33,259 nucleotides of DNA from Bacillota bacterium (GTDB lineage: Bacteria > Bacillota > Proteinivoracia > UBA4975). The DNA lies in NCBI GenBank assembly GCA_012727415.1, contig JAAYHI010000160.1:1-33259 (forward strand). The letters run 5' to 3'. Position numbers and translations under genes: made by a program. Below the pieces are notes generated by a model. It was not told where the DNA came from. It saw only the letters and a list, made by a program, of their open reading frames with translations, and made no database searches. Positions within the stretch are counted from its first letter, which is position 1; the number at the start of each line of letters is the position of its first letter. Below are positions 1 through 24,457 of this stretch, one piece after another.

Positions 1-623
1 ATTGCAACCGGCTCACTCGAAAGCATGTCAACATATACATCGGCACCATACTCAGGGCAGTCGATATACTCCTGGATCATCAGGTCATGGTGTTTACTAA
101 AGAGAAGGTCGATTTCTTCTCTCCCACTAGCAGTCCTGATTCCCAAACTTGCGCTGCCCCTGACCGGCTTGACAATAACAGGATAATCGATGATGCCGCA
201 TTCAACATCCCTGAAAAACAGTTCTTTGTCAACATAGCTTCTGATAGCCTTAAATCCGTTTTCGAGCAGAAATTGATTGAAACGCCATTTATCAAAACAC
301 ATTTCAACAACATCATAATCGGATATTATTGGAGTTATGCCTGCCTTCAAAAACAAGTCCTTATTTGCCGCCAGCATGCTGAGCTCAGGATCTATCAGGG
401 ACAAAACTGCCCTGATGTCATTCTCCTTACAGATATTTAGTATAGTGTCCAGGTAAGATGCTTCATTTATCCCCGGGACTATGAAGTACTTGTCGGCATC
501 ATACAGTGCGGGAGCCAATTCACTGCAATCCGTCGCCATGACAAGGCCATTACTGCCCAATTCCCGTTTAAAGTACTGGATAATCTTATTTCTGGTGCCG
601 CAACTTAATATCAGTATGTTCAT
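1..623 (-). CDS. ATP-grasp domain protein (PylC/carbamoyl-phosphate-synthase-like, polysaccharide-locus type); 3' end runs off the window
   Basis: Not in the ORF track; translated by hand. ATG at 623 directly follows the upstream TAA (TAAATG) and the frame is open to position 1: MNILILSCGTRNKIIQYFKRELG...APALYDADKYFIVP...SLIDPEL...CFDKWRF...YPVIVKPVRGSASLG...MIQEYIDCPEYGADVYVD. DK, P-x-x-x-KP-x-x-G-S-A-S and QEYI...E are ATP-grasp motifs. Confidence 0.88.
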   Translation of the reverse strand, partial: MNILILSCGTRNKIIQYFKRELGSNGLVMATDCSELAPALYDADKYFIVPGINEASYLDTILNICKENDIRAVLSLIDPELSMLAANKDLFLKAGITPIISDYDVVEMCFDKWRFNQFLLENGFKAIRSYVDKELFFRDVECGIIDYPVIVKPVRGSASLGIRTASGREEIDLLFSKHHDLMIQEYIDCPEYGADVYVDMLSSEPVA

Positions 624-1559
624 TTACAGTTCCCCCAAGCTGTCGAAAAATAATGGGGTGCCGCCGGTATGGATAAACAGAATATTCATCCCGGTTATTT
701 GACTTTCCCGGATAAATTCTTTCATCCCCCAGAAGGCCTTCCCGGTATATGTGGTATCCAGAGGAATGCCTTCCTTTATCAATACGCTCCTAATGGTTTG
801 CACAACCTCCTGATTGTAACTGCCGTAGCCTTCAAGCACATAAGCATCTACGAAGTCAATGGATTCTCCGCTGACGCCTGTTTCACCGATACTATTCAGG
901 TAGCTGTTTACACTGTCGACGACTACCTGGCTGCCCCAGGGCTTGCGGCGAGCAATACTGATGCCGACAACTTTACTGTTGTCTTTATTGATTACCTGCC
1001 CGCATACAAGGCCGGCTTGAGTAGTGCCGGTGCCGGACGGGTGGAATATATAGTCAAATTTAATTTTGTTGCTATTTTCGAAGTGCAAAATCTCTTTATA
1101 GGCATCTGCATACGCCTTTGTTCCCAGATTGCCGTGGCCGCCGCCAGGGATAAAGTAAGGCTTATACCCCTGATGCCTTAACCTCTCCAATTTTTCCTCA
1201 ATGGTGTCCTTTACAGCTGCCACCTGACACAAAATTATCTCGGCACCAAAGAACTGCATCAGGGCTGTGTTATATGAAGCTGTTCGGGTCTCAACCGGAG
1301 AAATAATACTGCAGGGCAGCCCCTTGGCAGCAGCGAGGTTTGCAACCACTCTGCAGTGGTTAGAACTGCTGCTGCCGTAGGTGACGACATAATCACAGGA
1401 CTTCCTCTCCACTTCTGCGAAAAAGGGCATCGCCTTCCGTGCTTTATTTCCACCGAAGGAAAAAGGGAAGAGATCATCCCTTTTCACGAAGAAGGCATTG
1501 CCATTAAACCTGTCCGTTAGCATTTGAATTGGTGTCGAGGGATAGTTGCCATACATCAT
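624..1559 (-). CDS. PLP-dependent D-cysteine desulfhydrase / ACC deaminase family enzyme (desulfhydrase-like residues)
   Basis: Motifs KRDDL, GGNKARK (PLP lysine), SNHCR, IPGGG, GTGTTQAG, LDTTYTGKA and FIHTGG; AAGGAG RBS; TAATG overlap with the GNAT stop. Confidence 0.88.
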   Translation of the reverse strand: MMYGNYPSTPIQMLTDRFNGNAFFVKRDDLFPFSFGGNKARKAMPFFAEVERKSCDYVVTYGSSSSNHCRVVANLAAAKGLPCSIISPVETRTASYNTALMQFFGAEIILCQVAAVKDTIEEKLERLRHQGYKPYFIPGGGHGNLGTKAYADAYKEILHFENSNKIKFDYIFHPSGTGTTQAGLVCGQVINKDNSKVVGISIARRKPWGSQVVVDSVNSYLNSIGETGVSGESIDFVDAYVLEGYGSYNQEVVQTIRSVLIKEGIPLDTTYTGKAFWGMKEFIRESQITGMNILFIHTGGTPLFFDSLGEL

Positions 1560-2074
1560 TATAAGTTCTCCTTGCGGTATTCAGCAGCCAGCAAGCCGTA
1601 GACGAATCTGTCAACCCTTCTTCCATCCTGGAGGAGGTCTTGTCGCAGCAGGCCTTCTTTGACAAAACCAAGCCTTTCAAAGAGCTTCTGCGCCGCTAAG
1701 TTTTCAACTTCTGTGTACAGGTAAATCTTATTTAAATTAAAAACAGTAAACCCCTTGTCCAGCAAGAGCCGGGAGGCCGTAAACGCTACTCCCCGGCCTT
1801 TGTATTTCTCTTCGCCAAGAGCAACATAGTACTCCCCTTTCCTGTTCCTGGAGTCGATGTTAATAAGGCCAATCAGGCCGGCGGGTTCCCCGTTGCAGGT
1901 AATGGTATAGTCGGCCCGGTCCTTTCTGCCCTGAAGAGACCTGAACCACAACAATGTCTTCTCTTCGCTCAGAGGTAAATCGTAATGAAGAAATCTGTTG
2001 TTCTTCTCGTCATTAATCCATTTTACCTTAAGGGGTATATCTTCCTCGATAAATCTTCGTATCTCAATATTCAT
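1559..2074 (-). CDS. GNAT N-acyltransferase (RimJ/RimL, PseH/SpeG-like)
   Basis: Acyl-CoA loop YKGRGVA, LNKIYLYT and N-x-x-AQKLFERLGFVKEG. Start moved to ATG 2074 behind GAGGTGG (track start 2083). Confidence 0.85.
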   Translation of the reverse strand: MNIEIRRFIEEDIPLKVKWINDEKNNRFLHYDLPLSEEKTLLWFRSLQGRKDRADYTITCNGEPAGLIGLINIDSRNRKGEYYVALGEEKYKGRGVAFTASRLLLDKGFTVFNLNKIYLYTEVENLAAQKLFERLGFVKEGLLRQDLLQDGRRVDRFVYGLLAAEYRKENL

Positions 2075-2088
2075 AACTACCACCTCAG

Positions 2089-2703
2089 TCAGGCAGACAT
2101 GTCCTCAGATTGGGTATAAATGCTTTCCTTGCGAAAAATCTTTTGCACAGTTTTAAAGAGTATTTTTATGTCCAGCCAGATGGTAAAATTTTCGACGTAT
2201 TTGACATCGACGCGGATTCTCTCATCCCAGGGCACGGAATTCCTGACAGTGACTTGAGTCAGCCCAGTCATTCCAGGTCTCATTCCAAACCGCTTCCGCT
2301 GGAAATCAGAGTACTCATCATATCTGTACGGGTGGAATGGAACCGGCGGTCTTGGCCCTACCAAACTCATATCCCCAACGATTACATTCCAAAGTTGGGG
2401 TAGTTCATCCAGACATGTCCCTCTGAGGAATTTGCCTATCTTAGTAATTCTCTGGTCCTGCTCGGTCCTGACGAACAAACCGTCGCCAATCTTCTCGGCA
2501 TCAACCACCATTGTTCGGAACTTAAGGATATTGAAGATCTTGCCGTCCTTCCCCAGGCGTTGCTGTTTAAAGAAAACCGGGCCCTTGGAAGTAAGCTTGA
2601 TCAGCAACGCAATAATAAGGAGAATTGGCGAAATAATAATGCCCCCAATAATGCTTCCCAAGAGATCGACAACCCGTTTAATAAAAATATTTACAGCTCT
2701 CAC
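2089..2703 (-). CDS. Priming phosphoglycosyl transferase (small PglC/EpsL-type bacterial sugar transferase)
   Basis: KRVVD, one hydrophobic segment, KFRTM, LDELPQLWNV, GDMSLVGPRP, RPGMTGLTQV. Confidence 0.93.
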   Translation of the reverse strand: MRAVNIFIKRVVDLLGSIIGGIIISPILLIIALLIKLTSKGPVFFKQQRLGKDGKIFNILKFRTMVVDAEKIGDGLFVRTEQDQRITKIGKFLRGTCLDELPQLWNVIVGDMSLVGPRPPVPFHPYRYDEYSDFQRKRFGMRPGMTGLTQVTVRNSVPWDERIRVDVKYVENFTIWLDIKILFKTVQKIFRKESIYTQSEDMSA

Positions 2704-2810
2704 AGACTCACCCTATCTATTAGCTGATCAGTGCTGCTTGATATCACTTAACAGAGCTTAACACAGTGTACGTTATAATAAAGGGAAATTCATGGCAGGC
2801 TGGCAAGCTA

Positions 2811-3449
2811 TCATTCATAAGGTAAAGGTATTGCTTGCACAAACTTGCCGCGGACAATAAGTCGCTTTGCCGATGAGACGCTTCCCACCCGCTGACAAGT
2901 TGTCAAAGTAATGGCGGCGTAGTCCAGGGGGGCAATTACTTCGACCTGTGTTGGTTCGACAGAAAACACCTCTTCAACTTCATAAAAGTAATCCGCTTTG
3001 GGAGTGCGAAGGATTATTTCATCGCGGGGATTGAGGTCAAAGAGCTTGTGAAAATACCCTGCAGGTCCTCCTCTGTGCCCGGCAATCAATAAGTTGCCGA
3101 CCTCGCCGGGGAAGACGCTTTCCGGATAATAGCTGGGTGGTTGGTTGAACTTACGGGAAAATACATCCATATCCTTGACCGCCACTACTTGCACCGACAA
3201 GTCAACAGCCGGGATCTCCAGTTGAGTGGGAGGGAACTCGTCCCACTTCGGGAGAGAAGGCTCCTGCTGCTTATCTTTTCCGGCAATGGCCTCAATATGA
3301 TATTTCTGACGTTGTTCCATAAATGCTTGTTCCAGGCGGCTCTGCTCCACCCGAGCCTGGATTCTTAAGTACAGAGGATATCCTATCATGGCCAAACCGG
3401 CAAATATCAGGATTGCTGCAACGATATGAATAACTTTCCTTTTTACCAT
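2811..3449 (-). CDS. Sortase, probably class D
   Basis: N-terminal membrane anchor; triad motifs IAGHRG (His), TLTTC (Cys) and RLIVRG (Arg). Start moved to ATG 3449 behind GGGGGTGA. Confidence 0.88.
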   Translation of the reverse strand: MVKRKVIHIVAAILIFAGLAMIGYPLYLRIQARVEQSRLEQAFMEQRQKYHIEAIAGKDKQQEPSLPKWDEFPPTQLEIPAVDLSVQVVAVKDMDVFSRKFNQPPSYYPESVFPGEVGNLLIAGHRGGPAGYFHKLFDLNPRDEIILRTPKADYFYEVEEVFSVEPTQVEVIAPLDYAAITLTTCQRVGSVSSAKRLIVRGKFVQAIPLPYE

Positions 3450-3481
3450 ACCGTCACCCCCATCCCCCAAGAATGGCTAAG

Positions 3482-4651
3482 TTACCTGTCAGCAAGAATA
3501 TTAACATAAAGATCTATTAACTTGCCCTCTTCACGCTCCCAGCAAAACAAACTGGCAGCTTTGCCTGTATTTTCTGAGTAAATCCGGTAAAGGTCCTTCT
3601 CCAGAAATACGTTAAGTTCGTTGGCGATTAACTCAGGATCCCAGGAAGCCAGGACCAGCCCGACTTTATACTCTTCGACAACCTTCCGCATTTCGGGAAG
3701 GTTGCTGACAACCACCGGCAAGCCCGCCTGCATATATTCAAATACCTTATTGGGCAGGCAGTAATGGTAGCTCAGGCATACATCTTCGATTATACTTATG
3801 CCTATATCCCCTCCCGCTGTATAGGGAGCCAAATCTGACGGGGACACTGCGGGGTGAAAATAAACTCTTGCTGCAACACCTAAGTCTGCGGCCAGCTCTT
3901 TCAAGTGAGGGACGAGAATGCCATTGCCCAAAATGACAATGACAAATTCATCGCGCAAATACCTGGTTGCTTTGACCATCAGTTCCAGCCCCCGATGCGG
4001 GCTGATAACCCCCTGATATAAGAGGATAATCTTATCGGGGGCAATGCCCAAATCCCTGCGCAAGGGGGAAGCGTCCCGGGAAAATTCTTCCCGCGCCCGA
4101 TAATATGGAAGATTCCTCAGCAGGACAACCCCTTCAATACCAAAGCTCTCTTCCATATACTGCGCAATTGGCTGGGTAACAGTAATCACTCCTGCTGCTC
4201 TGCGGGCAATAAAGCGTTCCATCTTTGCCGCCAACTTTTTTACATTTGCCGGGCGCTTAGCGGCATGAGCCGTATGACCCCAAAGTTCATGGGCATCATA
4301 AACCAGTTTGCTCCTGGCCAGCTTGGCAATCATATAACCAATGGGCAGGGCATCCCGGTCGTGCGCATGCACCAACACCGGCCGCAGAAGCCTGCCTTTC
4401 TGCACCATCTTCCAGACACATTCGAGGTACTTAAACAGCTGCCAAAAAAAAGATTTCGGCAGGGAACGTGTCCGCAAGGCAAAGCGGGTTAATTCATGGG
4501 TATCCCGGGTCTCCTTCAGCGGCAGGCCGGTTTCATGCAGTGAGAATACATGGACTTGGTACCCGGCCGCGGTCAGAGTGCGACATTCCCGCAACACTCT
4601 GGAATCGTTGGTAAAACTGTTAAGGACAATATGGAGGACGGTATCAGCCAT
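3482..4651 (-). CDS. Glycosyltransferase family 4
   Basis: DSRV, VHAHD, YDAHE, YQG, PNKVFEYMQAGLPVVVS. Start moved to ATG 4651 behind GAGGGG. Confidence 0.9.
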   Translation of the reverse strand: MADTVLHIVLNSFTNDSRVLRECRTLTAAGYQVHVFSLHETGLPLKETRDTHELTRFALRTRSLPKSFFWQLFKYLECVWKMVQKGRLLRPVLVHAHDRDALPIGYMIAKLARSKLVYDAHELWGHTAHAAKRPANVKKLAAKMERFIARRAAGVITVTQPIAQYMEESFGIEGVVLLRNLPYYRAREEFSRDASPLRRDLGIAPDKIILLYQGVISPHRGLELMVKATRYLRDEFVIVILGNGILVPHLKELAADLGVAARVYFHPAVSPSDLAPYTAGGDIGISIIEDVCLSYHYCLPNKVFEYMQAGLPVVVSNLPEMRKVVEEYKVGLVLASWDPELIANELNVFLEKDLYRIYSENTGKAASLFCWEREEGKLIDLYVNILADR

Positions 4652-4674
4652 CTTTTTCCCCTCTTTAGTTATGC

Positions 4675-5796
4675 TCAACCCAGGGATTTGAGTATGGTCG
4701 CCAATGTTCGGGTTACTGTATCCACCTGTTCTTCACTCATCCGGGTAAAGAAAGGCAAAGCTATTGTGCGTGCGGCAATATTTTCTGTCACTGGAAAGTC
4801 ACCAGGTGAGTAACCCGTCATTTCGATTATGTGGGGCTGGTGATGAATGGGGGTAAAATATGGTTTGCAGCCAATGCCCGCTTCCTGCAGGCGATACATG
4901 ACTTTATTCCGATTAATTCCCTCATCCAGGGTTATGACATAGACAAACCAGCTCATCCTGGTAACATTGCCGGCAATCCAGGGTGCGCTAACTCCGGGAA
5001 TGCCCTGCAGCCTTTCTGCGTACATCTCCGCCACCTTTTGACGGGCAGCGATAATTTCATCGAGCCGTTCCATTTGGGCGACGCCAATGGCGGCATGTAC
5101 TTCACTTAAGCGATAGTTATACCCCAGGCGCTGATGCTCCAGCCAGGTTCCTGTGACAGCTCTGCCCTGGCTGCGCATGCTGCGGCATAATTCAGCTATT
5201 TCATCGACATTTGTTACAATCACTCCGCCTTCGGCAGTGGTTATTTGCTTATTAGGATAAAAAGCGAAAGCGGCAACGGTAGACTGAGAACCAGCCATCT
5301 TTCCCCTCCAGGCTGAACCCAGGGCCTCACAGCTGTCCTGAATAACCACCAGGTTATGGCGATGAGCAATATCATTTACCGCCTCAATGTCAAAAGGCTG
5401 GCCAAAAACATCCACAGGCAAAATCCCTTTGGTTTTTGAGGTTATCCTGGCTTCGATCTGATTGATATCGAGATTGAAAGTGCGGGGGTCAATGTCAACA
5501 AATACAGGCTTGCCCCTTTCAAATAATATGCAGTTAGTCGAGGCAATAAAGCTAAAAGGCGTCGTGATGACTTCATCGCCTTCTTCAATCCCGCATGCCC
5601 TGATCATCAAGTGCAAAGCACTGGTGCCGCTGTTTACGGCAATGGCATGTTTAACGCCAATATATTCGCTGACTAGTTGCTCAAATCTTTCGATTACCGG
5701 ACCGATGCTGAGCACACCTGAACGCAATACTTCATTGACATATTCGATTTCTTTTTCACCGACATCCGGCCGGGACAGAGGAATTACTTCTTTCAT
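4675..5796 (-). CDS. DegT/DnrJ/EryC1/StrS sugar aminotransferase (likely C4 aminotransferase paired with the CapD-type dehydratase)
   Basis: NSGTSALH, TTPFSFIAS, FYPNKQITTAEGG (PLP Lys), GYNYRL. True start MKEVIPLS at 5796, overlapping the flippase stop (TAATG); the track's extension to 5952 lies inside the flippase gene. Confidence 0.92.
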   Translation of the reverse strand: MKEVIPLSRPDVGEKEIEYVNEVLRSGVLSIGPVIERFEQLVSEYIGVKHAIAVNSGTSALHLMIRACGIEEGDEVITTPFSFIASTNCILFERGKPVFVDIDPRTFNLDINQIEARITSKTKGILPVDVFGQPFDIEAVNDIAHRHNLVVIQDSCEALGSAWRGKMAGSQSTVAAFAFYPNKQITTAEGGVIVTNVDEIAELCRSMRSQGRAVTGTWLEHQRLGYNYRLSEVHAAIGVAQMERLDEIIAARQKVAEMYAERLQGIPGVSAPWIAGNVTRMSWFVYVITLDEGINRNKVMYRLQEAGIGCKPYFTPIHHQPHIIEMTGYSPGDFPVTENIAARTIALPFFTRMSEEQVDTVTRTLATILKSLG

Positions 5797-7358
5797 TATT
5801 TTCCTCCCTGCTCTGCATGGCTGAATCTTTGCCATACTCTTTTGATCAGAATCTTTGTTTCGGCAGCTCCCTGTGCTTTCAGCAACGCGGCGCAGAGGAA
5901 GTACACTGCAGCACCAAGCCCGATAACTGCTGCCAAGGTCACCGCTGCCCACAATCTGCCCGAGGGCATCAAGGGCATCAACATATCATATACAAAGTAT
6001 ACCACTATCCCCATCAGCAATGAAGCAACCAGTGACTTACCCGCATCGGCCAGCATGGGCCGAACTTTTATGCCGCCAATTTTGCGGGCGAGAAGCCAAA
6101 GCAGCAAAACCCCTCCCAGCCAGTGGGACAATGAAGTTGCCAGGGCCAGCCCCCCATGCTTGAGGCTGCCGATAAAGAGGAAATTTAACACTACATTCAT
6201 AGAAATAGAGGCAAACGAAGACAGCAATGGAGTCTTGACATCACCCATGGCGTAGAAGGCTTTAATCGAAAAAGTGCTCAGCATGGTGCCAATCAGACCG
6301 ACGCTGTAAAACTGTAAAGGGGCAGCAGTTTGAATGGCAGCGGTCATATCGAAATGGCCCCTTTGAAAGACAATCTGAATTATTGGCAAGGCCAGCACCA
6401 CAAATCCCACCACCATAGGCATCAGCAAAAACTGCATGGAATTGACGGCCTTGGTGAAGGTATCGCGAAACTTGTCATATTCCCGATTGTTAATGTAGTC
6501 AACAAGGCTCGGGTAAACTACAGTAATAATTGAAGTAATCAGCAAGCCCTGAGGCAAGCCGACCAAGCGGGAAGAATAATTGAGGTAGGAAATGCTTCCC
6601 TCCGCCAATGTAGAGGCAAACATTTTGTCAGTTACAGACTTAATCTGGCTAGCCATGCTCCCAATAATTACCGGCGGCAGCATGCGCAAGATCTCTTTAA
6701 GCCCATCGGCGGATGATGCCTTCAAGTCCCCATACATCTTGGTTTTCAGGAACCATGGTAACTTAAACAACGACTGTGCGACGACGCCAAAAAGGGTTCC
6801 CCAAACCAGGGCATAAATACCCAGCTTCTGGTGGAGCGCAAAGCTTATGGCAATAATGACTATGTTATAAGGAAAACCATCCATTCCGGGAACGGCAAAA
6901 TTCCTGTTGACATGGAGAACTGCCCGGATAACTGAAGAAAGGAAGCGGAACAGAATCATTACGCACAGGATTTTCACCATACCTGCGGTAATGCTGGCAG
7001 TGGCATCGTCAAAACCAACTGCAAAGAGCTTAACCAACTGCTTGGGAAAAAGCTCAATAGGAAGGACAAATAACAGGGCGGTAACTGCCAGGCCAATAAG
7101 AATAAATCTTATCACCAAAGACTTGTCCCGCTTTTGTTTGCGGAAACGGTCATATATCGGTATAAAAACATTGTTGATGGCTGACCCCACTCCGGTATAA
7201 AGCAGGGTAGGAATCGTCACCGCCATATTATAAGCATCCGTCAAAGCCGTCGCACCGAAAAGGGCAGCTACCACCATCTCCCGGCCGAAACCCAGGACTT
7301 TGCTTGCCATGGTCAGGACAATTACAATTATTGCTGAGCGCGTAATATTCTTTTTCAT
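5796..7358 (-). CDS. murJ: MurJ/MviN-family lipid-linked glycan flippase
   Basis: SKVLGFGRE...FGA...DAY, FIP, YLNYSSRLVGLP, FQRGHFD, AFYAMGDVKTP; many transmembrane segments. Context suggests a polysaccharide flippase. Confidence 0.88.
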   Translation of the reverse strand: MKKNITRSAIIVIVLTMASKVLGFGREMVVAALFGATALTDAYNMAVTIPTLLYTGVGSAINNVFIPIYDRFRKQKRDKSLVIRFILIGLAVTALLFVLPIELFPKQLVKLFAVGFDDATASITAGMVKILCVMILFRFLSSVIRAVLHVNRNFAVPGMDGFPYNIVIIAISFALHQKLGIYALVWGTLFGVVAQSLFKLPWFLKTKMYGDLKASSADGLKEILRMLPPVIIGSMASQIKSVTDKMFASTLAEGSISYLNYSSRLVGLPQGLLITSIITVVYPSLVDYINNREYDKFRDTFTKAVNSMQFLLMPMVVGFVVLALPIIQIVFQRGHFDMTAAIQTAAPLQFYSVGLIGTMLSTFSIKAFYAMGDVKTPLLSSFASISMNVVLNFLFIGSLKHGGLALATSLSHWLGGVLLLWLLARKIGGIKVRPMLADAGKSLVASLLMGIVVYFVYDMLMPLMPSGRLWAAVTLAAVIGLGAAVYFLCAALLKAQGAAETKILIKRVWQRFSHAEQGGK

Positions 7359-7382: not shown

Positions 7383-8504
7383 TCAGACCAACAAGGCTGC
7401 AATTCTTTGTCCGGCACGTCCATCTCCGTAAGGAGCTGGCCGCGGCCCCTCCGGCGGCAAAAAGTCATGGTACATTGTCAGTTTTCTGCCCCCCAGCCCC
7501 GCCAGCACATTCCAGCCCGCTTCAACTGTTTCCAGCCATTCTGTTTCATCTCGCAAAGTAATGCACGGCTTCCCTAAAATAAAGGCTTCCTTTTGCACTC
7601 CGCCTGAATCGGTAATTATCAAGGATGCATTGTCCATCAGAAGCAGCATTTCCAGATAGCCAACGGGCTCAATTGCGTGCAGAGAGGGAGATTCCAGCAG
7701 TCTCTCCAGCCTGAAACCGGCGGCCTTTTTTCTGGTCCGGGGATGCAAGGGCAGTATTACTTTGCGCCCCATCGAGGCAAGCCCCCGGAAGACACCTTCC
7801 AGGTTTTCAGGCACATCAGTATTTTCCGCCCGGTGTACTGTAGCAAGGATATAATCATCGCCAAAATGGATTTCCGGTGGCAACTGCCTGCGGCGTGCTA
7901 TCTCCAGATTGTATAATACAGCGTCGTACATGACATCTCCTGTGTTGACAACCAAGGGCCTTTCAGGAGTAACCGAAGGTATTGCCGCCCCAATGTTCGC
8001 CAAATCCCCATTGGAGAAGAGATTAGTAAAGCCTTCCTCTGACAGGTTCCTTACTGCAGTTGCCGTGGGACAAGCTAAGATGGTGGAGATGCTGTCGGTA
8101 ACCACCCGATTGATTTCCTCAGGCATTCTGCGGTTAAAGCTGCGCAGCCCCGACTCCACATGCAAAACCGGCACGTGCAGCTTTACCGCTGCCAAAGCCC
8201 CCGCCACAGTGGAATTAGTATCCCCGTACACAAGTACCCAATCAGGTTGTTCCTTGACAATTATCTCCTCAACCTCCGCCAGCATCCTGCCAGTCTGGCG
8301 GCCATGACTGCCCGAACCCACCCCCAGATTATAGTCGGGCAGCGGAATATTCAGTTCCTGAAAAAAAACGGCAGACATATTTTCGTCATAATGCTGGCCA
8401 GTATGGACTATCACTTCCTGATGGAACCGGCGCAACACCCTGGACACTGCTGCTGCCTTGATAAACTGAGGACGTGCGCCTAAAACCGTAAGAACTTTCA
8501 TCAT
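7383..8504 (-). CDS. Non-hydrolysing UDP-HexNAc 2-epimerase, WbpI/WlbD-like
   Basis: GARPQFIK (WbpI-like rather than the WecB GTRPEAIK), HTGQHYD, GDTNST, HVESGLRS, PEEINR, TDSGGVQKEA. Confidence 0.92.
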   Translation of the reverse strand: MMKVLTVLGARPQFIKAAAVSRVLRRFHQEVIVHTGQHYDENMSAVFFQELNIPLPDYNLGVGSGSHGRQTGRMLAEVEEIIVKEQPDWVLVYGDTNSTVAGALAAVKLHVPVLHVESGLRSFNRRMPEEINRVVTDSISTILACPTATAVRNLSEEGFTNLFSNGDLANIGAAIPSVTPERPLVVNTGDVMYDAVLYNLEIARRRQLPPEIHFGDDYILATVHRAENTDVPENLEGVFRGLASMGRKVILPLHPRTRKKAAGFRLERLLESPSLHAIEPVGYLEMLLLMDNASLIITDSGGVQKEAFILGKPCITLRDETEWLETVEAGWNVLAGLGGRKLTMYHDFLPPEGPRPAPYGDGRAGQRIAALLV

Positions 8505-9694
8505 CCATTCCCCTTACCTGATGAACTGTCGATGGCCGCAAACAGGTTTATCATCTTTTTTGCATTGGTATGCCATGAATACTTGTCAAGCACTAATTTT
8601 CTGGCCCTCGACCCCATTCCTCTGGCAGCATCAGGATTGGCCAGCAATTGGTCCAGTGCCTTTACCAAGGCATCGAGGTCGTCGGCCTCGATCAACATCC
8701 CCGTTTTACCGGAACAAACGACATCGGCAATCCCCTCTCCCTTGCAGCCGATAACGGGCAAACCTGCCGCCATTGCCTCCAAATAAGCAATACCGAAACC
8801 CTCCATACTGCTGGGGAGAGAAAAAATCTGAGCCTTAGCCAGTAAGCCTGGCACGTCCTGATTGGGGACCCGACCCGTAAACTCAACTATATCATCAATT
8901 TGCAAATCTCGGGCCAGTCGCTGCAAGTTGGCTGCCTCTTCCCCGTCCCCTGCTACGGTATAGCGAATATAGGGGTATTTGCGGCGCAAAACAGCCACAG
9001 CATGCAGATTCAAGTCCAGTCTCTTTGTCTTTACCAAGTTGGATACACTGATAATGGATCCGGCTTGAGCCGAAGGTTGTATTTCTATGTACCTGCTGCT
9101 GTCAAAGCCATTATGTATTACTGCCGTCTTGTCAGGCATATGCGTTATCTCGTCCAACATATCTTTTAGCTTGCTGCTAACAGCAACAACCATGTCCGCT
9201 TCCCTGACGGCATTAATAATAGCTTGGCGGCAACTGTGGTTGCGGCAGGCAGTTTGCTGGACGTCTTTACCGTGAACAGTGATTACAAGAGGTATTCCCA
9301 GCTGCCTTTTGAGTAAGTGCCCTGCCTGTCCATCAGGTAAAATTGTGTGCGCATGGATAACAGCAAAGGGATTTTTTTTGTGGAGTTCAGCTACATGTTT
9401 ATGCAGTGCCCGGTACAGCCGGAAGCCGCTGCGCGCCATGCCCAGCCCGGCCGGGAAGACGAGATAAGCCGGGCGCCGGACAGCAATGCCGTCACGGGAA
9501 AAGGCCTTGGGAATGCTGCAGTAATGCCTCCAGCGGGGCAGAAGTCCAAGGGGATATGGCACCCAGGGACGAGGAGCGAGAACTGTTAAGCTGCAGCCCT
9601 GGCGCATTAGTTCCAGGTTTTGCTGATGTACGAAAATGCCTTTTGTAATGTTAGCAGGGTAGGGATACATATGGGAGATGACGAGGATGTTCAC
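8501..9694 (-). CDS. Glycosyltransferase family 4 (TuaC-like)
   Basis: ISHMYP...GIFVHQQ, IHAH, TVHG, EGFGIAYLEAMAAGLPVI (EX7E); AGGAGG RBS with GTG start. Confidence 0.92.
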   Translation of the reverse strand: MNILVISHMYPYPANITKGIFVHQQNLELMRQGCSLTVLAPRPWVPYPLGLLPRWRHYCSIPKAFSRDGIAVRRPAYLVFPAGLGMARSGFRLYRALHKHVAELHKKNPFAVIHAHTILPDGQAGHLLKRQLGIPLVITVHGKDVQQTACRNHSCRQAIINAVREADMVVAVSSKLKDMLDEITHMPDKTAVIHNGFDSSRYIEIQPSAQAGSIISVSNLVKTKRLDLNLHAVAVLRRKYPYIRYTVAGDGEEAANLQRLARDLQIDDIVEFTGRVPNQDVPGLLAKAQIFSLPSSMEGFGIAYLEAMAAGLPVIGCKGEGIADVVCSGKTGMLIEADDLDALVKALDQLLANPDAARGMGSRARKLVLDKYSWHTNAKKMINLFAAIDSSSGKGNG

Positions 9695-10968
9695 GCAGTC
9701 GCCTCCTGTCCTTCAGTATCCTCATTGCAGGCACACCAGAAGTATACAAACAGCAGCCAGAATAGTTTCAGCAACAGCCCGTCTTCTCCGGAAATGCAGA
9801 TATTAAGGACATACATAACAGCGACTGAGCAAATGAGAACCTTTTGATAGAATAAACGCCCTCTGGCTGCGACAATGCCCAGCCCAATAAAGAGCAAGTA
9901 CAATATCGCTGCGACAGTGGACTTAATCAGTCCCCCCTCAATGAAGGCATTGAAATAAAAATTGTGGGGATGGTCGCCCGCCCCAAACATATCTGTGTAC
10001 GCCCTGGTTCCAGCACCAAAAATTAGCTGAAAAGCAGTAAATCCATTAATATAGTCTGCAGCCTGAGCGATGCGCTCCGCCCGGCCCCCGATCATTCCCA
10101 GTACCCCTTCCTGACGAATGGTAACAAGGATTCTTTGAATGGTTGTAAACTTAAAATTTTCATTCAGCATTGGCAACAATACTGACAGGGCCAGGATGCC
10201 CAGGACAATTACAGCTGTCAGGGGAATAAAAAGACCCTTTGACCGCCGAAGGGTCAAAATTGCTATAGCCAACAGGGGAAGGGTGTAAAAGATTATACCC
10301 CGCCTGGAGCCGCTGTAGAGCAGCATAAAAGTCAGTAAGCCATAAGCCCCCAGCATTGCCAGGTGGACAAGCCATACTTTCTTTTTGAAGACTTGATTCA
10401 TCAGGGCGACAGACAGCAGTACAGATACAATTAAGTGCAGGAAAAAAATATTATAGTCACCAAACACACTGATGCTGTTGGCCGACCAGTTTCTTGCCCT
10501 GTTTGTCGCCGAGAAGACAAACATAAGCAGAGCAAGCAGCGAAATTACCCCGCTGCACTCCAACACTTTCATCGCAAAACCTGACCTGAACTTTTGCAAC
10601 ACCAGTATACTTGACAAGGAAAGCAGGAAAAACCACAAAATCCTCAGGGTTTTCTGGAAAGCTGCCTGGGGAAGCGGTGACCAGCCAATGGCCAAAAAAC
10701 TTAGGGCAATATAGAGAAGGATGCTGAACAGCAATACCTTCTTTAATTGCTTTGCCTGTCCAAAATTAAAGGTTAAGGTGCCGAAAACCAAAAACTCAAT
10801 TGTCAGCAAGCCGAACAATCCTGCAGCAGCCAGCATGAAAGAAGTAATGCCCAAAATGCTGCGAAAGTAATCCACTCCTGTTTCAAACAGGGAAGCCGCC
10901 CATAAAACTGCCACGCAGGCAACCTGGAGCATTGCATAATTCTTTTGTCTCTGCTCTAAAGTATCCAT
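9691..10968 (-). CDS. O-antigen ligase/polymerase (Wzy_C family) membrane protein
   Basis: Many transmembrane segments, SGSRRG, and FGAG...HPHNFYFNAFIEGG in the large loop. Start moved to ATG 10968 behind AGGAGAAGG. Confidence 0.8.
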   Translation of the reverse strand: MDTLEQRQKNYAMLQVACVAVLWAASLFETGVDYFRSILGITSFMLAAAGLFGLLTIEFLVFGTLTFNFGQAKQLKKVLLFSILLYIALSFLAIGWSPLPQAAFQKTLRILWFFLLSLSSILVLQKFRSGFAMKVLECSGVISLLALLMFVFSATNRARNWSANSISVFGDYNIFFLHLIVSVLLSVALMNQVFKKKVWLVHLAMLGAYGLLTFMLLYSGSRRGIIFYTLPLLAIAILTLRRSKGLFIPLTAVIVLGILALSVLLPMLNENFKFTTIQRILVTIRQEGVLGMIGGRAERIAQAADYINGFTAFQLIFGAGTRAYTDMFGAGDHPHNFYFNAFIEGGLIKSTVAAILYLLFIGLGIVAARGRLFYQKVLICSVAVMYVLNICISGEDGLLLKLFWLLFVYFWCACNEDTEGQEATA

Positions 10969-10996
10969 TAGCCTTCTCCTTAACCTGCAGCCAATA

Positions 10997-11830
10997 CTAA
11001 CTTTGCTGCCTGCGAGCGTCAATACCGGCGCGGACAAAATCTGCGATGATGACGAGAATCGCCCCTGCAAACAAGCCGGCAACAGCGAAGACAATGATCT
11101 TGGTTCGGCTTAAGGGAGTCGAAGCAGCATATTGCACCCTGTTAACATACTGCAACTCGTAACGGTTTAAGATGTCGGGAAGCTTGTCCTTTAAGCCAAG
11201 CATCTCGTCACGGGCGTAATCCAGTTGAGACAATTGGATGTAAAGACGAGTCCGTTCTTCGGAAAAAGTCTCCCGGTAAAGCTCATCTTGTTGTTCCCTG
11301 TATTTCTCCAGGTGCTCAATTTCTCCCTGGCGATATAGAATATCGTAGTCAATGCACTCCAGAATGCCGTCAATTATTTCACCAGACCGTTCCGAGCGAT
11401 AGCGATCAACTGCAGCAGTATAGGCTGACAACCCTTTCTCCAGCAACTGGGCATGTTCTGCCACTTCTTTGCTGCGCACAGATATGCGGACAATTCTCCC
11501 TGACCTGGCAACACTAACCTCTTGGGGAAGAGCATCGATGCCAGCCAGTATAGAGTCAATTACTCCTTCGTCTGTCTGGCGTGTAATTGCGCGGTCGAGC
11601 TCGTACAGACTGGAAAAGAAGCCAGCCACATACAGATTGCGGTGAATCTTGTAGTCGGCCTCAGTAACTTGTTGATACCCGATTTGAATAGTGGACTGAC
11701 CTGTTAAAAGGTACTGGGTAAAGATAATACCTCCCACAACCACTGCAACCATTGCTGTCACGATAACAAACTTTTTCTTCCACAAGAGGTGCAACAGTGC
11801 GAAGATGTCAAGTTTTTCGGTTTTCTTCAT
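10997..11830 (-). CDS. Wzz-like polysaccharide chain-length determinant / co-polymerase
   Basis: LDIFALLHLLWKKKFVI then an N-terminal TM, a charged helical middle, a Pro-preceded C-terminal TM, and position next to the Wzy-like gene. Confidence 0.72.
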   Translation of the reverse strand: MKKTEKLDIFALLHLLWKKKFVIVTAMVAVVVGGIIFTQYLLTGQSTIQIGYQQVTEADYKIHRNLYVAGFFSSLYELDRAITRQTDEGVIDSILAGIDALPQEVSVARSGRIVRISVRSKEVAEHAQLLEKGLSAYTAAVDRYRSERSGEIIDGILECIDYDILYRQGEIEHLEKYREQQDELYRETFSEERTRLYIQLSQLDYARDEMLGLKDKLPDILNRYELQYVNRVQYAASTPLSRTKIIVFAVAGLFAGAILVIIADFVRAGIDARRQQS

Positions 11831-14934: not shown

Positions 14935-14953
14935 CAGGTTTCCTCCAATCTAA

Positions 14954-16033: not shown

Positions 16034-16052
16034 TGTTACCTCCTTATCCAAC

Positions 16053-17369: not shown

Positions 17370-17382
17370 CAATCTACACCCC

Positions 17383-18480
17383 TCATTCATAGAATCCACG
17401 CACAGCTTGAATGACGCAGTCCTGAGTCTGCTTGGTCATTTCGGGATACAGGGGAATGGCAAAGGCGGTTTTGCATGCTTTTTCCGCCACCGGCAAACTG
17501 CCCTCCCGGTAGCCCAAATCCCGGTAGACCTCCTGAAGGTGCAGAGGAACGGGGTAATAATGCCCGGTGGCAATGCCTTTGTCTTCGAGATAGGCACAGA
17601 TTTCATCCCGGTGCGGGCTACGCAGCACATAAAGATGGTAGACATGGGTCCCTGTAAACTCAAGAGGCAGAGTCAGGGGCAGGTCGGCAAAGGCCTGGTT
17701 ATAGCGGGCAGCCAGTTCCCTGCGCTTTTGATTCCATTTGTCCAGATGCCGCAATTTTATCCTCAGAATGGCTGCTTGTAATTCATCCAGGCGGCTGTTT
17801 TGCCCGACAAGGGAATGGATGTATTTTTGTTTGCTTCCATGGAGGCGAAGCAGGCGCAGTCGGTGGGCAAGCTGTTCATCATCGGTGGTGATCATACCCC
17901 CGTCTCCGCAACAACCCAGGTTTTTCGTGGGGAAGAAGGAGAAGGCTGCAGCCTTGGCCAAAGTGCCTGTCATTTTGCCCAGGTAGCTGGAACCGATTGC
18001 CTGGCAAGCGTCCTCCAGGAGGATGAGCTGATGCTTATCGGCAATATTCTGTAGCTTATCCATTGCGCAGGGTTGTCCAAAAATATGCACCGGCAAAATG
18101 GCCTTGGTCCTTGGCGTAATTGCTGCCTCAACCTGCTCCTCATCGATATTCATGGTATCGGGCCGCAAATCGACGAAAACCGGCTTGGCGCCGCACAGGG
18201 ATATAGTTTCGGCACTGGCAAAAAAGGTAAAGGGAGTAGTGATTACCTCGTCTCCGGGACCAATGCCGAGGGCGCGCAAGATTAAGAACAGGGCATCGGT
18301 GCCGTTGGCAACGGCAACAGCATGTTCTGCCCCCAGGTAGCGGGCAGCCTCCTCCTCGAACCTCCTGACGTTTTCCCCCATAATATACCTGCCGCTGGCC
18401 AGTACCTCAGTGACAGCGGGGAGGATTTCCTGCTCAAGTTGTTTGTACTGTTCTGTAAGATCTAACAGCGATATTTTCAT
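17383..18480 (-). CDS. DegT-family aminotransferase, WbpE/WlbC-like
   Basis: ANGTDAL, EDACQAIG, SFFPTKNLG (PLP Lys), NSRLDELQAA, HYYPVPLHLQ; adjacent to the wbpA- and wbpB-like genes. Confidence 0.9.
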   Translation of the reverse strand: MKISLLDLTEQYKQLEQEILPAVTEVLASGRYIMGENVRRFEEEAARYLGAEHAVAVANGTDALFLILRALGIGPGDEVITTPFTFFASAETISLCGAKPVFVDLRPDTMNIDEEQVEAAITPRTKAILPVHIFGQPCAMDKLQNIADKHQLILLEDACQAIGSSYLGKMTGTLAKAAAFSFFPTKNLGCCGDGGMITTDDEQLAHRLRLLRLHGSKQKYIHSLVGQNSRLDELQAAILRIKLRHLDKWNQKRRELAARYNQAFADLPLTLPLEFTGTHVYHLYVLRSPHRDEICAYLEDKGIATGHYYPVPLHLQEVYRDLGYREGSLPVAEKACKTAFAIPLYPEMTKQTQDCVIQAVRGFYE

Positions 18481-18489
18481 TTTTCCACC

Positions 18490-20352
18490 TCAGTCTTGTA
18501 TAGTCTCACTTGATGCCTGAGCATCATGGTTAACTGCAGGCTTAAAGCTGGGAACCACCTGTCTAAGAACATTTACTACCTCAGAATTAGAAGCCTGTAA
18601 CAGAGTTGCCCGCAGCTTATCGATTTCCTGGCGGCAGGCTTGAAGGTCGTCGAGACAGCCGTTTTTCAAGACAAAAATCTTGTCGTGGCAAGTAGTTTGG
18701 ACGGATTCATCATCCAGGTGCAATTCTTCATATAGTTTTTCTCCCGGCCTAAGGCCGATAAACTGAATGGGAATATCGACGTCAGGCTTAAACCCCGAAA
18801 GTTTAATAAGGTCCCGGGCCAGATCCAGGATTTTCACCGGCTTGCCCATGTCGAGGACAAATATTTCCCCGCCCTTGGCCATGGCAGAAGCCTGCAGCAC
18901 TAACTGCACCGCCTCCTGTATTGTCATAAAGTAGCGGGTCACTTCGGGGTGAGTAACCTGCACCGGCCCACCAGCAGCTATCTGACGTTGAAAGATGGGG
19001 ATGACGCTGCCATTGCTGCCCAAAACATTGCCAAAACGCACTGCGACGTATTCAGTCTGGCTGTTCCTGTTGAGATGTTGCACCACCAGCTCCGCTGCCC
19101 GCTTACTGGCCCCCATGACATTGGTTGGGTTGACAGCCTTGTCGGTGGAAATCAGGACAAAACGCTGGACCTTATAGCGATTGGCCGCTTCCGCCACATT
19201 GATAGTGCCCAGGACATTGTTCTTTATTGCCTCACCGGGACTGTCTTCCATCAAAGGCACATGCTTGTGCGCAGCAGCGTGGAAAACGATGTGGGGGCGG
19301 TATATTGAAAACACCTGATCAATTCTCGCCTCATCCCGGACACTGCCGATGAGCACTTTCCTGGGGATATCCGGGAAATTTCTCTCCAACTCCAGCTGCA
19401 GTTCGTACATATTGTTTTCATATATATCCAACATGATGAGAAATTGGGGCCCATACTCTGAAATCTGCCTGCACAGTTCAGAGCCTATTGAACCTCCTGC
19501 CCCTGTAACCAACACGACTTTACCGGAAATATAAGCGCTGATGTTCTCGGTATCCAGGGTAACCGGGGGACGGCCCAGCAAATCCTCAATTTTTACATCC
19601 TGAATCTGTTTTATCGAAACCTGGCCATCGAGAATTTTGTAGACTCCCGGCAACCGCCGCAGCCGACAGCCAGTTTCTTTGCACTGGTTGATGATATCCA
19701 GGATGTTTTGTTCGCTGGCCGAGGGTATCGCAATGATAATCTCACCAATTAAGAACCTGTCGACAGTGTGCTGAAGCATGTCCATACCGCCGACAACGGG
19801 AATGGAATGAATCCTCGTCTTCCACTTGTTCCTGTCCTCATCAATAACCGCCACGGGAACCCGCCTGAGCTCAGGATGCTCCCGCAACTCCTTGATTACC
19901 ATCGACCCGGCAGAGCCGGCCCCGATGACGAGCACATTGGTATGCTTTCCCCGGGCACTCCGGGTAGGGCGCAGAGAATCAACAGCCCGGAGAACGAAGC
20001 GGGAGCCGCTGATAAAGGCGACGAGGATAAACCATTGCAGCACATAAATGCTGCGGGGAAGACTGTCGGGGATAAACTGAAAGACAATATACACTGCCAG
20101 GCAATAGGTGCTGACTCCAGCGATAACTGTCAAGAATTCATCGATGCTGGCATAGCGCCAGAGGTTAATATACATTTTATAAGCAGCAAAAATAAGTACG
20201 CCCAACACCGCCATGGGTATACTGTACTTCCATGCAATATCGATATAACGTTGCGGTACATCGCCTTCAAAGCGTAAAAATAAGGCCAGAGCTACCGCCA
20301 CAATAAGCATCACTATATCCAAGACAATCAGGCCCCATTGTCTGCGGATCAT
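18490..20352 (-). CDS. Membrane-anchored UDP-GlcNAc 4,6-dehydratase (CapD/PglF/WbpM family)
   Basis: Four N-terminal TMs, GAGSAG, EDLLGR, TGAGGSIGSE, HAAAHKHVP, STDKAVNPTNVMGASK, RFGNVLGS, GLRPGEKLYEEL. Start placed at ATG 20352 behind AAGGAGG. Confidence 0.94.
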   Translation of the reverse strand: MIRRQWGLIVLDIVMLIVAVALALFLRFEGDVPQRYIDIAWKYSIPMAVLGVLIFAAYKMYINLWRYASIDEFLTVIAGVSTYCLAVYIVFQFIPDSLPRSIYVLQWFILVAFISGSRFVLRAVDSLRPTRSARGKHTNVLVIGAGSAGSMVIKELREHPELRRVPVAVIDEDRNKWKTRIHSIPVVGGMDMLQHTVDRFLIGEIIIAIPSASEQNILDIINQCKETGCRLRRLPGVYKILDGQVSIKQIQDVKIEDLLGRPPVTLDTENISAYISGKVVLVTGAGGSIGSELCRQISEYGPQFLIMLDIYENNMYELQLELERNFPDIPRKVLIGSVRDEARIDQVFSIYRPHIVFHAAAHKHVPLMEDSPGEAIKNNVLGTINVAEAANRYKVQRFVLISTDKAVNPTNVMGASKRAAELVVQHLNRNSQTEYVAVRFGNVLGSNGSVIPIFQRQIAAGGPVQVTHPEVTRYFMTIQEAVQLVLQASAMAKGGEIFVLDMGKPVKILDLARDLIKLSGFKPDVDIPIQFIGLRPGEKLYEELHLDDESVQTTCHDKIFVLKNGCLDDLQACRQEIDKLRATLLQASNSEVVNVLRQVVPSFKPAVNHDAQASSETIQD

Positions 20353-20435
20353 TTCCATCCTCCTTAGCTGAAACAGCATGCCTACATACTTCTATAAAAA
20401 ACATAAATACCCTTCTTCATGTTGGGCTCCTGCCC

Positions 20436-21881: not shown

Positions 21882-21904
21882 AAAAAGAGAGCCTGAGCTC
21901 TCTA
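21882..21904 (-). terminator. Intrinsic terminator of the CWB2-GH18 gene
   Basis: Minus strand TAGAGAGC-TCAG-GCTCTCTTTTT overlapping the TAG stop. Confidence 0.7.
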
Positions 21905-24289: not shown

Positions 24290-24457
24290 TGTTCCACCTC
24301 CTTCTTTGATAAACTATTTCGTTGAGTATATTAAAAGCTCCTGCCAACAAACTGGAATTATGATCGGTAATTTTTGGAACGTACTGCCCCAGGTAAAAAA
24401 ATTATTTTCCTTTTTTGTGCAGGAATATTGTATACTTAGATTAAGGAGGGGATGACA

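Follow-up and report, generated by a model that had tools for sequence, protein, structure and literature searches.

A recurrent cassette of glycan loci in which a PLP enzyme accompanies an ATP-grasp ligase may build an N-acylated priming sugar

Positions 1-2703 of contig JAAYHI010000160.1 (GenBank assembly GCA_012727415.1), which we analysed as part of a stretch of 33,259 nucleotides referred to below as the window, carry four minus-strand open reading frames (ORFs) arranged head to tail that encode, in order of transcription, a polyprenyl-phosphate phosphoglycosyl transferase (PGT), a GNAT N-acetyltransferase, a pyridoxal phosphate (PLP) enzyme and an ATP-grasp ligase. Comparative analysis supports the view that these four genes are a recurrent functional unit in glycan loci, and we are inclined to think that their products make the priming sugar of a wall polysaccharide and pass it to the lipid carrier, with an amino-acid-type acyl group on nitrogen 4 (N4) of the sugar, tailoring by the PLP enzyme and capping by the GNAT. 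This reading draws on what the sequences show directly, namely the linkage and natural fusion of the genes, the conservation of catalytic residues and the way in which accessory enzymes replace one another. An earlier note on the same DNA had outlined a related scheme, in which the PLP enzyme makes an unusual amino or oxo acid by β-elimination or replacement, the ligase joins this acid to an amino sugar and the GNAT caps an amine. The glycan unit, the action of the ligase on an amino sugar and that of the GNAT on an amine find support, whereas the supply of the acid by β-elimination or replacement stays conjectural. The features of the cassette are as follows.

3..623, minus strand: ATP-grasp carboxylate-amine ligase, N-terminal 207 amino acids (aa) (PylC-like_N, 129.9 bits; NF009406, 271.8 bits)
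624..1559, minus strand: fold-type II PLP enzyme of 311 aa, D-cysteine desulfhydrase / 1-aminocyclopropane-1-carboxylate (ACC) deaminase family (PALP, 129.8 bits)
1559..2083, minus strand: GNAT N-acetyltransferase (Acetyltransf_3, 65.5 bits)
2089..2703, minus strand: small monotopic polyprenyl-phosphate PGT of 204 aa (Bac_transf, 229.4 bits)
2704..2810, no strand: intergenic gap of 107 bp between the sortase gene and the PGT gene (direct sequence reading)

The family assignments of the earlier note hold for all four proteins on these domain matches, and direct reading confirmed the array and the junctions that it had described. The PGT gene ends with a TGA at 2091-2089, which is followed after 5 bp by a GTG at 2083 or after 14 bp by an ATG at 2074; the latter is preceded by a GAGGTG ribosome-binding site and is likely to be the true start of the GNAT gene. 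The GNAT stop and the PLP enzyme start overlap by one base (TAATG) with an AGGAG upstream, and the PLP enzyme stop runs directly into the ATP-grasp start (TAAATG). The 107-bp gap between the sortase stop and the PGT start, by which the cassette had been considered to be set off from the genes upstream, is real, yet there is no sign of a transcription boundary there: a site scan over 1..6000 found no promoter-like or terminator-like consensus site within the gap, and the site counts over that interval were not above those of shuffled sequences (12 vs 8.5 ± 3.1 and 5 vs 6.1 ± 2.6). The window starts at the contig end and the ATP-grasp ORF is open at this edge. Extension of the contig leftwards, as the note had suggested, completes it: the end of contig C56 has 127 bases identical to window positions 1-127 (L003, 9369-9495), and the ORF continues in frame to a stop codon on C56 (L003, 9493..9032), to give about 318 aa in all. 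A genome of the same genus shows the same order, with an ATP-grasp protein of 319 aa followed by a protein of 1079 aa, and the ATP-grasp gene is therefore the last gene of the operon.

To survey gene neighbourhoods from the PLP side, we used a motif-based scan of one genome per species, which, within the limits of the motif, returned 341 relatives of the PLP enzyme spread over Clostridia, Bacilli and some Bacteroidota. Locus counts were taken from the best 80 of these 341 (53-92% identity to the PLP enzyme), which comprise many Clostridia and Bacilli and a few records labelled Alistipes, Flavobacterium and Muiribacteriota, and neighbouring genes were called by tblastn with the window proteins. 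An ATP-grasp gene lies downstream of the PLP gene on the same strand in 77 of the 80 loci, within 200 bp in 70; one of the three misses is a contig that ends at the PLP gene (L033) and in the other two the ligase is truly absent (L030, L090). The small PGT gene was found upstream of the PLP gene in 77/80, the three misses being contig starts, and in 43/80 a GNAT gene immediately precedes the PLP gene. A DegT aminotransferase gene adjoins the PGT gene on its upstream side in 57 of the 68 loci that could be assessed for it, and a PglF-like gene was found upstream in 32 of 51 such loci. The usual order is PglF - DegT - PGT - [slot] - PLP - ATP-grasp - GT4, where the slot is the interval between the PGT and PLP genes. 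As a control, none of nine distant paralogues from related genomes (30-34% identity) has any of these genes within 1.5 kb. The neighbourhood check that the note had called for is thus positive, and close homologues lying mostly outside glycan loci, the outcome named there as fatal to the proposal, are clearly not what was found.

The PLP enzyme belongs to a separate clade that is restricted to amino-sugar loci. In a quick tree (built, like that of the ligases described below, with SH-aLRT, the approximate likelihood-ratio test, as the only support measure and with a midpoint root), a branch with a support of 100 parts 40 glycan-linked PLP sequences from the nine distant paralogues. Close homologues are numerous, with 5682 proteins at E<=1e-30 among 7998 scored, and the 120 matches listed are 59-99% identical to the PLP enzyme. 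The distribution of the close form is patchy: it is present in two of 61 related genomes besides its own (92% and 66% identity), and the remaining matches in these 61 genomes are at most 35% identical. The genome of the window itself has a second, distant paralogue (contig C17, 3087-3884; 30% identity), which is presumably the housekeeping form.

Membership of the family is clear from the PALP domain (129.8 bits) and from the PLP-binding lysine K39, which lies in a GGNK motif, aligns with Lys51 of the Salmonella D-cysteine desulfhydrase StDCyD (PDB 4d8t) and is invariant in the clade. The closest solved relatives are 7ysk (141 bits), 1j0a and 4d8t, and identity to the Salmonella enzyme or the ACC deaminase family is about 30-35%. 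The motifs YTGK (residues 271-274) and HTGG (297-300), on which the note had based its distinction from ACC deaminases, are invariant or nearly so in the clade, and the distinction is borne out by alignments with PDB entries: Pseudomonas ACC deaminase (1rqx) has YEGK and HLGG, whereas the D-cysteine desulfhydrases 4d8t and 7ysk have YTGK or YSGK together with HTGG, in agreement with the residue contrast given in the available part of PMC3344862. Mapped onto 4d8t, the enzyme shares with StDCyD its fold, the PLP lysine and the tyrosine that removes the Cα proton, and retains N38 (Asn50), K39 (Lys51), S66 (Ser78), N67 (Asn79), H68 (His80), Y245 (Tyr261), Y271 (Tyr287), T272 (Thr288) and T298 (Thr315). 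The sole active-site change is Gln77 to Ser65, serine being present in at least 90% of the clade, and Gln77 is described, in the text available to us, as one of the key determinants of D-cysteine specificity beside Ser78 (PMC3344862).

In addition to this substitution and its separate clade, the enzyme differs from StDCyD in that it misses the cut-offs of all curated NCBIfam models: it scores 194.4 bits against a cut-off of 289.4 for the subfamily model TIGR01275, and 153.7 vs 469, 147.5 vs 429 and 140.6 vs 610 bits for the DcyD models NF003032, NF003030 and NF003029. As an ACC deaminase it falls short both in its motifs, which are YTGK/HTGG and not YEGK/HLGG, and in its score (TIGR01274, 134.9 vs 392). 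The best NCBIfam match is the CuyA cysteate sulfo-lyase model NF052482, yet at 208.9 bits against a cut-off of 450; cysteate chemistry, considered on the strength of this match, was rejected, as the related models score close together and all below their cut-offs. By its sequence, the protein looks like a competent family member with a different substrate. These data also bear on the suggestion that the PLP gene is a housekeeping D-cysteine desulfhydrase that happens to lie beside glycan genes. The family is indeed widespread and often housekeeping, and a second, distant paralogue is encoded on C17. Linkage in 77/80 loci across many orders, the fusions described below, the distinct clade and the missed D-cysteine desulfhydrase cut-offs leave such chance adjacency with next to no credibility, and it is already contradicted by the conservation data.

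The content of the slot between PGT and PLP genes provides clues to the nature of the product. Pfam analysis was carried out on one representative per slot type. A GNAT is present as a separate gene in 34 loci and fused in 13, two of these loci having both; the other contents among the 80 loci are a formyltransferase (3 loci), a formyltransferase with a PIG-L deacetylase and a GNAT (1), a FemAB-like transferase (1), an amino-acid-ligase-like ATP-grasp protein (3), a second ATP-grasp protein with a HAD hydrolase (1) and a PglD-like acetyltransferase with a second PGT and a GNAT (1), and in 26 loci the slot is empty. As judged from these domains, the slot is occupied by predicted amine-modifying enzymes only, or empty. 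The alternatives to the GNAT (formyltransferase, FemAB-like, amino-acid-ligase-like ATP-grasp) all act on amines, which lends support to the idea that the GNAT caps an amine. In 7 loci the PLP and ATP-grasp genes are separated by an extra ORF of 410-517 aa, which shows no match in Pfam, no PDB sequence match and no sequence similarity to the AsnB-like gene of the window (24452-26146), but its predicted structure (predicted local distance difference test, pLDDT, 68) gave Foldseek matches to β-lactam, carbapenam and asparagine synthetases, with E-values down to 8.5e-10 and template modelling (TM) scores of 0.44-0.50. Synthetases of these types activate a carboxylate and form an amide. The modelled fold suggests that the acyl group at times also carries a free carboxylate and, taken together with the amine-modifying enzymes of the slot, would therefore point to a group with both an amine and a carboxylate, that is, an amino acid.

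The PGT is of the small monotopic PglC/EpsL type, the Bac_transf domain extending over residues 9-190 of 204, and matches just the C-terminal catalytic part of the EPS_sugtrans, WcaJ and WbaP models.

Natural fusions tie the components together. GNAT and PLP enzyme form a single ORF in 13/80 loci and in 7 of the 120 homologues listed (P0075 was checked with Pfam). A sister PLP clade (38-45% identity) contains fusions of two kinds, with an N-terminal ATP-grasp and a C-terminal PLP domain (~700 aa) or with an N-terminal PLP domain followed by two GNAT domains (~600 aa), of which there are, by length, 61 and 59 respectively among the 120 listed; three were checked with Pfam. The ATP-grasp domain of the sister-clade fusions is of a different, L-amino-acid-ligase-like type. 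Standalone members of the sister clade (L126-L133, L135) lie in loci with DegT, GT2 enzymes and two small EamA proteins, which look like Arn-type systems for lipid-linked amino-sugar decoration. This PLP clade has thus been joined to ATP-grasp ligases and GNATs more than once, and always next to amino-sugar genes. On the ligase side, 30 ligase-containing proteins longer than 560 aa were found at E<=1e-25, and they include fusions of the ATP-grasp domain with DegT (P0311, 49%; P0318, 41%), with a WecA/MraY-type priming transferase (P0326), with a diaminopimelate (DAP)-decarboxylase-like enzyme (P0302, 59%), with an SDR protein (P0303) and with a FemAB-like domain (P0322). Such fusions link the ligase with what the aminotransferase makes and with what the priming transferase uses. 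Those with DegT and the priming transferase, together with the adjacency of DegT and PGT genes, support the proposal that the ligase joins its acid to an amino sugar. Structure prediction of a complex between the PLP enzyme and the ATP-grasp ligase gave a score of 0.00, which we count neither for nor against an association.

The ligase itself scores 271.8 bits, against a cut-off of 271, with the PRK12767-type, carbamoyl phosphate synthase-like model NF009406 from just 207 of its ~318 residues. Its full-length orthologue consists of PylC-like_N and ATP-grasp_3 domains and matches PDB entry 2pn1 (331 aa) over its whole length (293 bits, E 2e-86), the next best matches being RimK and LysX. A structure of the ligase family therefore exists, although the name under which 2pn1 was deposited ('Carbamoylphosphate synthase large subunit') gives no real function. 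Samples of genomes searched with the ligase reveal a variety of contexts. In a 301-genome sample of one family, 39 genomes have a ligase match, and the loci without a PLP partner read DegT - PGT - ligase - GT4. Of 401 Bacilli sampled, 52 have a match, two of them above 60% identity. In a set of Bacilli with proteins recorded under Brevibacillus names the order is DegT - DAP-decarboxylase-like - ligase, and in a B. cereus-group and Paenibacillus set, in which some of the proteins are recorded under these names, it is PGT - ligase - HAD - DegT, with more distant ligases of 31-41% identity (L166, L167, L169, L185, L196, L198, L200). In a further set of Bacilli a VanZ gene lies upstream of the ligase, and there is no recognised glycan gene within 1.5 kb. 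The pairing of the ligase family with a DAP-decarboxylase-like PLP enzyme, seen in many genomes (L139-L164, L176-L183) and at times extending to fusion (P0302), is a second uncharacterised variant of the cassette.

These partners leave room for a different role for the ligase, namely amidation of a uronic acid of the repeat unit, with ammonia released by the PLP enzyme through deamination or with an amine provided by the other partners. Such a system would resemble the glucuronamide enzymes of Campylobacter jejuni HS:2. Across the ligase family, the partner is seen to be a decarboxylase, a HAD phosphatase or a deaminase-type PLP enzyme, a UDP-sugar 6-dehydrogenase gene is located two genes downstream in many Lachnospiraceae-type loci, and the window itself encodes a UDP-N-acetylhexosamine (HexNAc) dehydrogenase pathway, all of which would suit this explanation. 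It nevertheless seems quite improbable, given that the conserved neighbours are DegT and PGT, with a UDP-sugar 6-dehydrogenase cluster in just 17/80 loci, and that the ligase is fused to DegT and priming transferases, no ligase-dehydrogenase fusion being present among the 30 long proteins listed.

In the pathway that we favour, a PglF-type dehydratase and a DegT aminotransferase, both encoded elsewhere in the cluster, would make UDP-2-acetamido-4-amino-2,4,6-trideoxyhexose. The ATP-grasp ligase would then activate a carboxylic acid as an acyl phosphate and join it to the 4-amino group of this sugar. The acyl group is envisaged as being of amino-acid type, with its free amine acetylated by the GNAT, and the PLP enzyme, as an optional accessory, would tailor the amino acid at its α or β carbon, either before ligation, by supplying a D-configured or β-modified amino acid, or after ligation, by acting on the exposed α-amino-acid head group. 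Finally, the PGT would transfer the finished sugar phosphate to undecaprenyl phosphate for extension by the GT4 enzymes.

Hwang et al. are said to have described, in the Journal of Biological Chemistry (JBC) in 2014, a Pat/Pyl pathway to UDP-Yelosamine in B. cereus ATCC 14579. In the part of PMC11626204 available to us, the ATP-grasp enzyme Pyl (Bc5272) of B. cereus is described as acylating the 4-amino group of a UDP-4-amino-6-deoxy-HexNAc with 2-oxoglutarate, and its gene lies beside that for a small PGT. The cassette resembles Pat/Pyl in combining a DegT-type 4-aminotransferase, an ATP-grasp ligase and a small monotopic PGT, which form one operon in B. cereus as far as that source goes. This Pyl-type context recurs in related loci, where the ATP-grasp gene lies beside DegT and PGT genes, and in the window the PGT gene lies two genes upstream of the ligase gene and a DegT gene lies ~4 kb upstream of the PLP gene. 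Unlike the cassette, the Pat/Pyl system as covered in the same source has no mention of a fold-type II PLP enzyme or a GNAT, and its acid is 2-oxoglutarate, the by-product of the aminotransferase. The B. cereus-group locus that we detected has the order PGT - ATP-grasp (31-33% identity) - HAD - DegT, a likeness in gene content whether or not its ligase is Pyl.

Neisseria PglB2 is characterised, in the accessible part of PMC11130364, as an ATP-grasp/phosphoglycosyl-transferase that makes a glyceramido-acetamido-trideoxyhexose. Here too an ATP-grasp domain would take the place of the N4 acetyltransferase that acts on the bacillosamine precursor, and is coupled to a priming transferase. The window differs in that its genes are separate, with the PLP enzyme and GNAT genes between them, whereas PglB2 is a single polypeptide that uses glycerate; the two are likened by their functions and not through sequence comparison. 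The PglB2-type fusion was not found in the window, whereas a fusion of WecA/MraY type occurs elsewhere (P0326). Related logic is known from butirosin biosynthesis, in which BtrJ (ATP-grasp) and BtrK (a PLP decarboxylase) act on a γ-glutamyl group borne by an acyl carrier protein, and from mycothiol biosynthesis, in which the ligase MshC and the GNAT MshD act on an amino sugar with an inositol glycoside as carrier. In both, the ligase installs an amino acid and the PLP enzyme or GNAT works on its free α-amino-acid end, a logic that fits best the variant loci with a DAP-decarboxylase-like partner. Unlike the cassette, neither is known to involve a D-cysteine-desulfhydrase-type enzyme.

Several points weigh against the reading of the cassette as a source of an amino-acyl priming sugar. 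All of the chemistry, including the amino-acid character of the acyl group and whether the PLP enzyme or the ligase acts first, is deduced from sequence and context, and the likeness to Pyl is one of gene content and reaction, not of sequence comparison. The PLP enzyme does not always accompany the ligase: among the 14 strongest ligase loci of the one-family sample, 7 have no PLP partner, 5 have a DAP-decarboxylase-like partner in the same position and 2 have the D-cysteine-desulfhydrase-like partner, and one of the genomes with a close ligase (61% identity), which has the order PglF-DegT-PGT-GNAT-ATP-grasp-GT4, has no PLP homologue at E<=1e-10 anywhere in the genome. A quick tree built from 63 ligases places the 44 closest in a single clade (SH-aLRT 99), where the three partner states are intermixed, the D-cysteine-desulfhydrase-like PLP label needing at least five changes on well-supported branches. 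Because the partner states are mixed in this way, the ligase is best regarded as the constant part and the PLP enzyme as an accessory that is gained, lost and swapped; it is optional, swappable and dispensable for the ligase. Moreover, the GNAT or formyltransferase could act on the sugar's own 4-amino group, and the characterised members of the PLP family, as far as they are covered in the available part of PMC3344862, are all lyases that give a 2-oxo acid and ammonia, not suppliers of amino acids.

The last of these points leads to an explanation in which the PLP enzyme acts, as is usual in its family, as a lyase that yields pyruvate or 2-oxobutyrate from a substrate of D-amino-acid type, the ATP-grasp ligase joins this oxo acid to the 4-amino sugar and the GNAT acts on a different amine. 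The catalytic residues of D-cysteine desulfhydrase are all conserved in the PLP enzyme, 2-oxo acids are the products throughout the characterised family and the acid used by Pyl is itself a 2-oxo acid. On the other hand, pyruvate needs no dedicated supplier, the GNAT-PLP fusions and the amine-modifying slot are hard to square with a product that lacks an amine, and the enzyme that replaces it in other loci, a PLP enzyme of decarboxylase type, does not produce an oxo acid. We therefore consider this route unlikely. The possible action of the GNAT on the sugar amine leads to another, in which the GNAT or formyltransferase N-acylates the 4-amino group in the manner of PseH or PglD, while the PLP enzyme and the ligase make an unrelated molecule or decoration. 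Sugar N-formyltransferases are common, and the GNAT shows weak similarity to the PseH model TIGR03585 (47.8 bits, below the cut-off of 93.1), although its membership of Acetyltransf_3 is clear (65.5 bits). Such a division of labour is very unlikely to apply, as the 26/80 loci with an empty slot retain DegT, PGT, PLP and ATP-grasp genes, and as fusions join the GNAT to the PLP enzyme rather than to sugar enzymes, and the ATP-grasp domain to DegT.

If, as we favour, the cassette attaches an amino-acid-type group to the priming sugar, the PLP enzyme may edit this group after ligation rather than make the acid beforehand. The swapping of partners on near-identical ligases favours post-ligation editing or a tolerant ligase, as does the fact that the alternative, decarboxylase-type partner needs a free α-carboxylate, whereas a supplier role, or the oxo-acid route, would fit better with the known chemistry of the family, in which elimination from D-amino acids leads to 2-oxo acids. 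A bolder extension, which we regard as doubtful, is that the PylC-like ATP-grasp ligase is the hub of a modular N4-acyl toolkit for Gram-positive wall polymers, with swappable PLP editors (D-cysteine-desulfhydrase-like or DAP-decarboxylase-like), amine cappers (acetyl, formyl or aminoacyl) and a carboxyl amidase-type enzyme, and that the PLP enzyme has moved past lyase chemistry to a Lys/Tyr two-base reaction that epimerises or β-modifies an amino acid, either free or bound to the sugar, and whose product is locked by the neighbouring or fused GNAT. If true, this would represent a reaction type and a glycan building block that are not described for this PLP enzyme family.

Many bacterial surface glycans begin with a rare N-acylated 4-amino-trideoxy sugar, and such sugars decide what a priming transferase accepts. 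We found two documented cases in which a 4-amino-trideoxy sugar is acylated by an ATP-grasp enzyme (Pyl and PglB2), so that the expectation of an undescribed pathway is only partly upheld: the pathway type, with ATP-grasp acylation at N4, is known, whereas the involvement of the PLP enzyme, the modular make-up of the slot and the family's breadth seem not to have been described before. A search limited to the literature accessible to us revealed no paper that links this PLP family with ATP-grasp enzymes in glycan synthesis, and nothing of relevance on amidoligases, although the neighbourhood figure for PGT cluster 24 in PMC11626204 may already show the gene. The widespread cassette brings a PLP family with no known glycan role into ATP-grasp sugar acylation and, as natural loci with and without the PLP enzyme share near-identical ligases, their comparison should show what the PLP enzyme contributes.

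The wider cluster contains the following genes of relevance to the cassette, among them the two aminotransferases noted earlier.

2811-3470, minus strand: class E-like sortase gene, between a GT4 gene and the PGT gene
4675..5952, minus strand: DegT aminotransferase (DegT, 413.8 bits; PseC-like, 335 bits, below the cut-off)
17383..18480, minus strand: second DegT aminotransferase
18490..20379, minus strand: PglF/WbpM-type membrane-anchored UDP-N-acetylglucosamine (GlcNAc) 4,6-dehydratase (Polysacc_synt_2, 408 bits)

Upstream of the cassette on the same strand lie genes for the sortase, a GT4 enzyme, the first DegT protein, a MurJ-type flippase, a WecB-type 2-epimerase and more GT4 enzymes, followed further upstream by those for a Wzy-like protein, an LbH acetyltransferase, a GFO oxidoreductase (UDP-GlcNAc 3-dehydrogenase-like, 147 bits), a 6-dehydrogenase, the second DegT protein, the dehydratase and two LCP ligases. 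The sortase gene is also present in the same-genus genome, as an ORF of 217 aa in L018. The longest ORF for the first DegT protein runs into the MurJ gene, so that translation probably starts at an internal codon. The protein is kept in the same-genus locus at 84% identity and is likely to be the UDP-4-keto-6-deoxy-HexNAc 4-aminotransferase that feeds the cassette. The dehydratase, which would supply the 4-keto sugar, has a TDK...MGASK motif, of the TDK...MxxxK type, which is tabulated for PglF/WbpM in the available part of PMC8987622.

Genes at 11894-18480 and 7383-8504 (both minus strand) encode a UDP-HexNAc 6-dehydrogenase, the GFO 3-dehydrogenase-like protein, the second DegT protein, the LbH acetyltransferase and the WecB-type 2-epimerase, which together resemble a route to a 2,3-diacetamido-2,3-dideoxy-uronic acid and would thereby account for the second aminotransferase of the cluster. 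At 9691-11830 (minus strand), the Wzy-like ORF (467 aa), whose O-antigen ligase domain scores just under the Pfam cut-off, overlaps the next ORF (277 aa), with a faint Wzz match, by ~100 bp, and the start codons there are therefore uncertain.

CWB2 wall-binding proteins flank the glycan cluster on both sides. A 795-aa protein encoded at 21902-24289 (minus strand) combines a GH18 domain with three CWB2 repeats and a weak SH3 match, and on C56 the ATP-grasp gene is followed by genes for an S8 protease (three CWB2 repeats) and a DUF5050 protein (two). CWB2 repeats bind wall-linked polymers. The flanking CWB2 proteins and the two LCP ligases therefore indicate that the cluster probably makes a wall-linked polymer that anchors surface proteins. 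On the opposite strand, the gene at 24452-26146 (plus strand) lies in a stretch of low G+C content (0.42-0.43 vs ~0.50 elsewhere) and encodes a protein of 564 aa with weak similarity to asparagine synthases (35 bits in Pfam and 50.5 bits for TIGR01536).

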